Assembly: GCA_934183325.1 (NCBI GenBank) | Contig: CAKPSH010000004.1 | Coordinates: 27,433-91,432, forward strand | Reading direction: 5' to 3' | DNA: 64,000 bases | Source: an uncultured Clostridia bacterium | Lineage (GTDB): Bacteria > Bacillota > Clostridia > TANB77 > CAG-508 | Shown here: one piece after another, positions 18,648-18,790 of the stretch | Layout: every line of letters starts with the position of its first letter | Position numbering within the stretch: position 1 is the stretch's first letter | Notes under the pieces: generated by a model | What the model was told of the DNA's origin: nothing | The model's input: only the letters and a program-made list of their open reading frames with translations | Databases searched by the model: none | Made by a program: the position numbers and the translations under genes

Positions 18648-18675
18648 AAAAGACCATTAATTTGGTCTTTTTTTA
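18648..18675 (+). terminator. Rho-independent terminator after spoVG
   Basis: aaagacca ttaat tggtcttt hairpin followed by TTTTTT. Confidence 0.6.
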
Positions 18676-18790
18676 TATTCTTAGGAAAGTCATCTATGAA
18701 ATAGTGAGTTTCCTTAGAAGATAATTATGGAAGAATTAAATTTTCTTATGTGCCTTTGGCACTTAGAAAATGTTATTTTTTTTTTATATT
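18668..18790 (+). repeat. Intergenic repeated element, copy A (shared with 58604-58750)
   Basis: ~50 nt identical block tttttttatattcttaggaaagtcatctatgaaatagtgagtttccttagaa containing a 9-bp-stem hairpin, plus a second conserved block ttcttat.tgc.tt..ggcacttagaaaat.ttattttttt. Confidence 0.45.

Follow-up and report, generated by a model that had tools for sequence, protein, structure and literature searches.

A two-hairpin intergenic repeat behind transcription terminators of an uncultured gut Clostridia species is probably a small non-autonomous mobile element

The same short intergenic sequence stands twice, behind unrelated genes, in a 64-kb stretch of DNA from an uncultured Clostridia bacterium (contig CAKPSH010000004.1; the whole stretch of 64,000 nt is called the window, and coordinates refer to it unless a strain locus is named). 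Copy A (18668-18790) follows spoVG and copy B (58604-58750) follows rplQ. Is this sequence a regulatory RNA, the debris of a duplication, or a mobile element? It is multicopy and non-coding, and its nearly identical copies differ in presence between strains, stand behind terminators and fold into two hairpins. Both stretches are very likely copies of a mobile dispersed repeat. More specifically, we read them as a non-coding, non-autonomous element of the MITE (miniature inverted-repeat transposable element) kind in the broad sense, which has spread through one gut Clostridia species, and we give this reading a probability of roughly 0.6.

Within the window, there are exactly two occurrences of the 38-nt hairpin core CTTAGGAAAGTCATCTATGAAATAGTGAGTTTCCTTAG, one at 18680-18717 and the other at 58616-58653; they share the + strand, and no match arose by chance in 100 dinucleotide-preserving shuffles. 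A repeat finder and pairwise alignment gave a common block of 56 nt with 98% identity. A second common block, TTTTCTTAT.TGC...GGCACTTAGAAAAT.TTATTTTTTT, ends in a T-run. The preliminary description of this DNA had named the two intergenic copies, their start at the T-run of the upstream terminator and the second block with its terminal T-run, and all of these hold; a terminator scan placed the intrinsic terminators of spoVG and rplQ at 18648-18671 and 58574-58609, respectively. It had also put the element at about 130 nt, with a 20-nt loop in the hairpin. The unit is shorter, about 105 nt plus the flanking T-run repeats, and folding pairs the supposed loop bases too, giving an imperfect hairpin of about 20 bp with a GAA triloop. 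The variable spacer of 23-56 nt does differ in length between the copies as described, but they do not share one architecture: A is a single canonical unit and B is a composite, and the spacers differ because B consists of a short one-hairpin unit followed by a diverged partial unit.

The canonical unit of about 105 nt runs from ATTCTT through hairpin 1 and hairpin 2 to ATTCTTG and is bracketed by a direct repeat of 7-8 bp with the consensus TTTTT(T)AT. The family consensus, drawn from all copies extracted with their flanks, consists of TTTTTTAT, ATTCTTAGGAAAGTCATCTATGAAATAGTGAGTTTCCTTAGAAGATAATTATGGAAGAATTAAATTTTCTTATGTGCCTCTGGCACTTAGAAAATGTTATTCTTG and TTTTTTAT in succession. All full-length copies are equal in length. 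When folded, the consensus forms two imperfect hairpins that are independent of each other (positions 5-56 and 63-112), and the latter is closed by AAGAAT/ATTCTT and followed by G and U6, as in a terminator. The lower stem TTCTTA../..CTTAGAA is common to hairpins 1 and 2 in the same orientation, and the two ends repeat each other in direct orientation (ATTCTTA... on the left and ...ATTCTTG on the right). Hairpin 1 is identical in nearly all copies. Relative to shuffled sequences, folding of the consensus gave a z of -5.6 for RNA and of -7.9 for DNA, and both window copies folded far better than shuffles on both strands (z -4.9 to -5.9). Since the two strands fold alike, the values of the copies describe palindromic DNA and do not point to an RNA made from one strand.

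How widely is this unit dispersed? A 24-mer from hairpin 1 matched 17 further short metagenome contigs from two assemblies. The match lies within ~65 nt of a contig end in 11 of the 17, which indicates a collapsed multicopy repeat, since assemblies are expected to break at repeats. DnaJ homologues 99% identical to that of contig L017 led to a second chromosomal region with two more sites, at dnaJ and at a transglutaminase-like gene (tgl). Metagenome matches and strain loci combined give ~21 distinct insertion sites, which have different flanks and stand behind unrelated genes; copies at different sites are 95-100% identical. Together with the strain differences given below, these sites bear out the dispersed repeat proposed in the preliminary description. 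Six of them fall in ~115 kb of surveyed chromosome, and a mere extrapolation from this density would give a genome some 50-100 sites.

In the DNA that could be reached, all sites belong to one uncultured human-gut Clostridia species. Exact-protein look-ups found this species on many human-gut contigs from Hadza and other cohorts, and the gene tables of its strain loci include the sporulation genes spoVG, spoIVB, spoIIAA/AB-sigF and SASP. By DapL, its nearest species representatives are genomes labelled 'uncultured Clostridia bacterium' (~80%), with Candidatus Scatovivens at 76%. The 24-mer had no match in 185,579 species-representative genomes, a set to which the species itself does not belong (best DapL ~80% identity). 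Scanned with a hidden Markov model of the family, 80 loci from related Clostridia gave no match, and neither did the locus of a sister species whose DnaJ is 85% identical. The rplQ-dapL spacer has no orthologous counterpart for comparison, as relatives carry dapF, not rplQ, upstream of dapL. A phage origin was rejected: neither the 24-mer nor either end matched exactly in 2.9 million viral contigs, and blastn returned only a chance match of 54 nt at 78% identity to two Vibrio phages. A plasmid origin was rejected as well, blastn of the consensus against 72,556 plasmids giving no match. Larger composite or autonomous versions were not detected when left and right end motifs were paired over 2.2 Mb of loci, which yielded palindromic-arm noise only.

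The strains compared belong to one species and have flanks ~97-99% identical over most of the compared regions; the window itself is 99.995% identical over 20,279 bases to the gut-metagenome contig of locus L006 (ENA). Five of the six sites comparable across strains are polymorphic. At the spoVG site, which could be read in nine strains, six alleles are empty, two are full (the window's strain included) and one is truncated. The six empty alleles read GGTC-TTTTTTTAT-ATTCAAAAAAA, with nothing between. The dnaJ site is filled in L134, L017 and L136 and empty in L135. Two sites lie in the same 94-kb region as the window, which has a copy at neither: dnaE, filled in two strains (L115 and L117) and not in three, and the peptidyl-prolyl isomerase gene (ppi), filled in L004 only and not in five. 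The tgl site is occupied in all three strains examined, and the first hairpin unit of the rplQ site is present in every contig examined, its second block (B2) being missing in L015. Insertion polymorphism, as expected of a MITE, is seen as clean empty alleles at spoVG and dnaJ and as remnant-bearing alleles at dnaE and ppi. These remnants read ...TTTTTA-TCTT(G)-TTTTTTAT and ...TAT(C/A)TTC-TTCTTG-TTTTTTAT, and two slightly different ones exist at dnaE. Their retained element ends indicate interior deletions, that is, losses, and not virgin sites; they may be excision footprints of a transposase or products of hairpin-driven replication slippage.

Two further differences between strains adjoin these sites. 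Beside copy A, at 18799-18807, the 12-nt sequence GAAATAATGAGC is missing in the window's strain and L006 and present in all others, filled or empty. At the ppi site, a 1.6-kb cassette (25190-26780) stands in place of the element remnant of other strains; it occurs only in the window's strain and L006 of nine strains, has its own terminator and T-run junctions, and encodes a radical-SAM/SPASM protein (25276-26364) and a small protein of 119 aa (26374-26733; no Pfam above threshold). We rejected this cassette as element-borne, as it is not bounded by the element's ends.

Copies have also been shortened. In a recurrent short form, the segment between two CTTAGAA direct repeats, which includes hairpin 2, is gone. 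Other short forms in L008, L016 and L115 have different junctions, so hairpin 2 was lost more than once. The dnaJ site carries a full-type junction in one strain and the short form in another at the same insertion, and thus the deletion occurred in place. Stem-breaking changes are found in older copies (L028, the inverted copy of L021, and B2).

What does the element insert into? The left flank could be read at 18 sites. At 14 of them, a strong hairpin stands directly against the left T-run, in most cases where an open reading frame (ORF) of the same orientation ends. As background, about 9% of comparable T-runs in the window abut a terminator hairpin: of 50 T5AT motifs in its intergenic DNA, only 7 do, three of these seven being the element's own. 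In L021, two copies flank a bidirectional terminator, one on either side, and the T-run of each copy lies behind the stem on its own strand. In L029, a newer copy sits inside the T-run that ends an older remnant. These patterns indicate that the target is a terminator-type T-tract, entered in one orientation. Elsewhere in the window, the bidirectional terminator at 16470-16513, between convergent Peptidase_S55 (SpoIVB-type) and Mur-ligase genes, is followed by TTTTTTATATTCT, 12 nt that also stand at the left junction of the element and at the empty spoVG site. There is no element at this position, and these 12 nt may be a remnant or a mark of target preference.

Every complete copy is flanked on the left and on the right by T5-6AT, a repeat of 7-8 bp. 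The non-consensus variant TTATTTAT is found at both ends of the copy in L025, and another, TTTTTCAT, at both ends at the tgl site. The right junction at dnaJ, TTG-C-TTTTTAG, agrees with GTC-TTTTAG of the empty allele, down to the stem's C. The duplicated variants and this junction favour a real target duplication of 7-8 bp. An IS91-like insertion 5' of CTTG, with which the element ends, was rejected because the spoVG and dnaJ empty sites contain no CTTG.

These features can be followed along the two copies of the window, all parts of which lie on the + strand. The target structure of copy A is the spoVG terminator hairpin (AAAAGACC-ATTAAT-TTGGTCTTTT, 18648-18671), which lies outside the element and is unchanged in strains without it. 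The terminator's own T-tract with AT (TTTTTTTAT, 18668-18676) is the left copy of the probable target-site duplication; the empty allele, GGTC-T7-AT-ATTC-A7, has the T-run and AT only once. Alignment with other strains and sites identified the body (ATTCTT...GTTA, 18677-18775) as a canonical full-length unit. It folds into hairpin 1 at 18678-18719 (TTCTTAGGAAAG...CTTTCCTTAGAA), with the imperfect stem and GAA triloop described above, and hairpin 2 at 18731-18780 (AAGAAT..ATTTTCTTATGTGCC-TTT-GGCACTTAGAAAAT..ATT), which is terminator-like with a T-run behind. From filled and empty alleles, the right T-run and AT, the right copy of the duplication, were placed at 18776-18787, with the native flank ATTCAAAAAAA next. 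The right terminal ATTCTTG has decayed into the T-run in the window's strain and is intact in strain L009. Copy B has as its target structure the rplQ terminator hairpin (58574-58609), and its left T-run and AT occupy 58604-58612. B1 (58613-58677) is a short-form unit composed of hairpin 1 (58614-58655), the right tail AATATTATTCTTG and T7AT; hairpin 2 was deleted between the two CTTAGAA direct repeats, with the same junction in L020, L023, L027 and L134. B2 (58678-58750) is an older, diverged partial unit with a spacer, hairpin 2 (58705-58737) and a tail, and without hairpin 1. The repeat TTTTTTTATTG stands at either side of B2, which is, by a by-eye estimate, ~75% identical to the matching half of the family consensus. 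Downstream and outside the element, the promoter scan found a promoter-like site for dapL, TTGAAA-17-TAAAAT with TG (58750-58778; 10/12 matches).

Small size (~105 nt, below the 300 bp of MITEs), ~21 sites and the absence of coding capacity agree with a MITE-like element. With clearly less confidence than in a mobile repeat as such, we favour a specific model in which the element generates a target-site duplication and is moved in trans by a transposase encoded elsewhere. It would insert in one orientation into a TTTTT(T)AT T-tract directly behind an intrinsic terminator stem, and a staggered cut would account for the duplicated 7-8 bp, such that the upstream gene would retain its stem and T-run and the element would end in a second T-run. 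The element would be selfish for the most part, and service as a back-up terminator would be no more than a side effect. After insertion, copies would decay by repeated loss of hairpin 2 through slippage between the CTTAGAA repeats and by loss of whole interiors, with end remnants left behind. The 95-100% identity of the copies speaks for recent amplification, and a recently amplified family that is now eroding by deletions is the best-supported account of the data.

Several observations weigh against this model. Direct-repeat ends are unusual for DDE-type MITEs, and comparison of the left end, ATTCTTAGG, with the reverse complement of the right end, CAAGAATAAC, revealed no terminal inverted repeat. 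The search for a transposase with matching ends covered ~135 kb of strain loci, whose gene tables list no transposase gene. The 'empty' alleles of dnaE and ppi retain element ends (e.g., CTTGTTTTTTAT). At the spoVG and dnaE sites, filled and empty or remnant alleles occur on both flanking haplotypes; at dnaE, either recurrent loss or recombination that shuffles alleles would give this pattern. Clean empty sites could have arisen by deletion between the flanking T-runs, so that the direction is unproven at single sites. Finally, the duplication is imperfect in L027, with TTTTTCAT on the left (C) and TTTTTTAT on the right (T), and at dnaJ, where the left copy ends in AT and the right in AG, each a mismatch of 1 nt.

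The main rival on mechanism, ahead of recombinational spread, a small RNA (sRNA) family and local duplication, is movement as single-stranded DNA by an IS200/IS605- or RAYT-type transposase of the Y1 (HUH) family, in the manner of a PATE or REP element. The unit would then insert on the 3' side of a short target, TTTAT, and duplicate nothing; T6AT on the right would belong to the element itself. In keeping with this, terminal inverted repeats are absent and a subterminal imperfect hairpin of similar sequence lies at each end, the lower stems being same-strand direct repeats (ATTCTTAGG../..CCTTAGAA and TTTTCTTATG../..CACTTAGAA). The left T-run varies in length (T3-T7) and the right one is nearly always T6. 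The window is ~26% G+C with a strong positive GC skew, and all copies of its region share one orientation on the G-rich strand, which, judging from the skew, would be the lagging-strand template that such elements use. Against it, the same non-consensus variant stands on both sides in L025 and at tgl; variant bases are doubled there, which argues for a true duplication where IS200/IS605 and REP-RAYT elements insert without one. The left cleavage site of IS608 is ~19 nt from the hairpin, and that of the present element would be only 1-4 nt from the hairpin foot. Neither a tnpA nor a RAYT gene is listed in the ~135 kb of this species' DNA. We regard Y1 transposition as unlikely.

A quite unlikely alternative is that no transposase is involved and that the host spreads the unit by recombination or replication template-switching between T-runs, through microhomology and with help from the hairpins, perhaps keeping it as a back-up terminator or 3'-end stabiliser. 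Every junction falls in a T-run, a setting that makes slippage and microhomology easy; internal deletions are frequent with several different end points, and the left end at dnaJ seems converted to the consensus. Most copies immediately follow a terminator, a position in which a second one would do no harm or be of use. Undirected exchange, however, hardly explains the precise boundaries shared by ~21 sites on the left (T-run, AT, ATTCTT) and on the right (ATTCTTG, T-run), or the defined duplication of 7-8 bp at informative sites.

It is also conceivable, though improbable to a greater degree still, that the terminator architecture of stem and T-tract is itself read as the target by an unrecognised mechanism, a structure-specific homing like that of class C group II introns but of a 105-nt passenger whose ends are direct repeats. 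One possible variant is a SINE-like retroelement primed on the T-tract, for which one may list that the other strand of the unit ends ...AAGAAT beside the ATAAAAA duplication, and that in L022 a partial reverse-transcriptase gene (1374-1964, minus strand; Pfam RVT_1, E = 4e-13) lies ~1.3 kb from an element copy, although it is probably unrelated to it. A hairpin-dependent transposase of a new class would be a second variant.

Might the unit instead be a gene for an RNA? The preliminary description had argued against a gene-specific riboswitch, and we agree: the neighbouring genes are unrelated, and neither locus has a riboswitch or other Rfam match. The sole match of the window in a gathering-threshold scan against Rfam 15 was a tRNA (36330-36416), and permissive scans of both loci returned only sub-threshold chance matches. 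Its other suggestion, a family of sRNA genes, would mean that each copy encodes a two-hairpin RNA of ~100 nt that brings its own terminator, and that the usefulness of this RNA made the repeat spread. The terminator-like hairpin and U-run at the end of the unit would suit this, as would folding energies well below those of shuffles, a -10-like TATATT at the left end and a weak ATGAAA-18-GATAAT (9/12 matches), which is the sole promoter-like site of the interior; bcr1 elements, which are compared below, are transcribed (PMC3184786). However, no promoter, and no -35 in particular, is conserved before the unit, since the upstream sequence differs at every site, and promoter-like sites were not enriched over shuffles. 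The minus strand folds equally well. Among eight distinct full-length copies, 0/39 pairs showed compensatory changes, in a comparison with little power as 29 pairs are invariant; the stem changes seen in full-length copies mostly break pairs and occur in older copies. There is thus no evidence in these alignments of a selected RNA structure, in a covariation test of low power. Hairpin 2 was lost independently at several sites, the older hairpins of L028, the inverted L021 copy and B2 are decayed, and strains without copy A are common. The sRNA proposal therefore found no positive support, and we consider it the least credible of the alternatives so far. At two sites, the element ends ~25 nt before the ribosome-binding site of the next gene; there it must be transcribed within a longer RNA, in which it could reduce read-through. 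A coding function was rejected, as the 38-aa ORF at 18727-18843 starts in the element, runs into the non-conserved flank and is interrupted in copy B. A remnant of local duplication without a wider family, for which just two copies in the 64-kb window might speak, is refuted: the preliminary description had named only two copies genome-wide as the outcome in its favour, and what we found is ~21 sites with unrelated flanks, some of them in the same region of other strains.

Other features of the region vary between strains or attracted attention during the comparison. A different polymorphic repeat lies inside the ribosomal protein operon, in the rpsE-rplO spacer (window 51168-51187; L010:5028-5286, L012 and L015). 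About three tandem units of ~99 nt (AGAAGCTTTAGAATTATAGATGCAATTGAAATGAAATTTCAATTACAATCCTTAGAAAATAAAAT...) are present in L010-L013, one partial unit in L015 and none in the window or L014; the unit has a TTGAAAT-GAA-ATTTCAA hairpin and a CCTTAGAAAAT motif in common with the terminator-T-run element. Between spoVG and clpC, a 39-aa ORF (18896-19015) with a good ribosome-binding site and a conserved start region was called in 9/9 strains and has no Pfam match. A block of small genes downstream of a T2SSE-like ATPase gene (11700-14400), possibly a pilus operon, is 83-92% identical between strains and partly unalignable in surroundings of 97-99%, which suggests diversifying selection or allele exchange. 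The rpmJ-rpsM spacer (55122-55508) is unusually long, ~385 nt, and conserved in all strains, with no family match. Just past the window, downstream of tex, is a strain-variable region: L128 (15100-20852) has genes for a response regulator and a histidine kinase and a large nonribosomal peptide synthetase gene, whereas L129-L133 have a YkuD-domain protein gene and valS. The contigs L129-L132 stop at the same place, ~9.5 kb past the window end, and their last ~400 nt contain strong promoter-like motifs in tandem (TTGACA...TATAAT, twice). We read this shared end as an rRNA operon leader and rejected it as a repeat of the kind studied here, the motifs being rRNA operon promoters instead.

MITE-like repeats are commonplace among the 'junk' repeats of bacteria. 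This family and the other small repeats of the genome explain intergenic conservation, contig breaks and length differences between strains in an abundant but uncultured lineage of gut Clostridia, and they matter for annotation. Annotations that call the element a riboswitch or an sRNA should be avoided. Its presence/absence pattern is a ready strain marker for metagenomic strain tracking. Each insertion adds a second hairpin and U-run behind a terminator, sometimes right before the ribosome-binding site of the next gene, and may alter read-through between neighbouring genes. The tight T-tract placement, fixed orientation and lack of inverted-repeat ends make the family a compact test case for the movement of repeats like bcr1 and SPRITE. 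Two peculiarities are useful here, the strict terminator placement and the clean empty sites, the latter being the material that is missing for SPRITE.

Among known systems, the closest in architecture is bcr1 of the Bacillus cereus group, a repeat of ~155 bp whose two independent stem-loops are predicted to form a cruciform and which has 5-bp TTTAT direct repeats, is strain-variable and has no known mechanism (PMC3184786, PMC6542083). The present element is likewise a small non-coding Firmicute repeat with two stem-loops and TTTAT-containing flanks, varies between close strains and has no known transposase. Unlike bcr1, for which compensatory changes were reported (PMC3184786), it shows none, and no sequence similarity to bcr1 was detected; its plasmid blastn was empty, although bcr1 is reported on plasmids (PMC6542083). 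The host is unrelated and outside the B. cereus group, and the unit is shorter, so that the resemblance is one of analogy only. The apparent duplication is 7-8 bp (T5-6AT) here and 5 bp in bcr1. To our knowledge, a strict position behind terminator stems has not been reported for bcr1.

Class C group II introns home just behind intrinsic terminator stems in a fixed orientation. The analogy is limited to the target: these introns are ~2-kb ribozymes that encode a reverse transcriptase, in contrast to an element of 105 nt without intron features or an Rfam match. The small MITEs RUP, Correia/NEMIS and ERIC are, like this family, non-coding, multicopy and intergenic, with a target-site duplication (a probable one in this family), a stable fold and strain polymorphism. 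They carry terminal inverted repeats like those of a cognate insertion sequence, usually with a TA or other short duplication, whereas the family described here departs from classical MITEs in its direct-repeat termini and has no known cognate insertion sequence. REP/REPIN-RAYT repeats and the IS200/IS605-derived PATEs resemble it as hairpin repeats behind genes that lack terminal inverted repeats and have a same-orientation hairpin near each end. REPs, however, are GC-rich palindromes of ~35 nt with a GTAG head, and IS200/IS605 elements make no target duplication and move by a Y1 transposase, a gene absent from the ~135 kb surveyed here.

The SPRITE repeat of pneumococcus is terminator-like and lies near gene 3' ends, and neither empty sites nor matching insertion-sequence ends were found for it (PMC3049150; reviewed in PMC10969869). 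Shared with SPRITE are the AT-rich composition, a length of ~100-150 nt, a long stem with a U-rich tract, enrichment near gene 3' ends, the lack of matching insertion-sequence ends and the view that the repeat is selfish, perhaps doubling as a terminator (PMC3049150). SPRITE belongs to a different species, differs in sequence and has one 18-bp duplex with AAAA/TTTT termini in place of two hairpins; clear empty sites and a probable duplication are available here, neither of which could be established for SPRITE. The element thus resembles bcr1 and SPRITE in architecture and behaviour and is a member of neither: the family is previously undescribed, and its kind is that of the small interspersed MITE-like repeats of Firmicutes.

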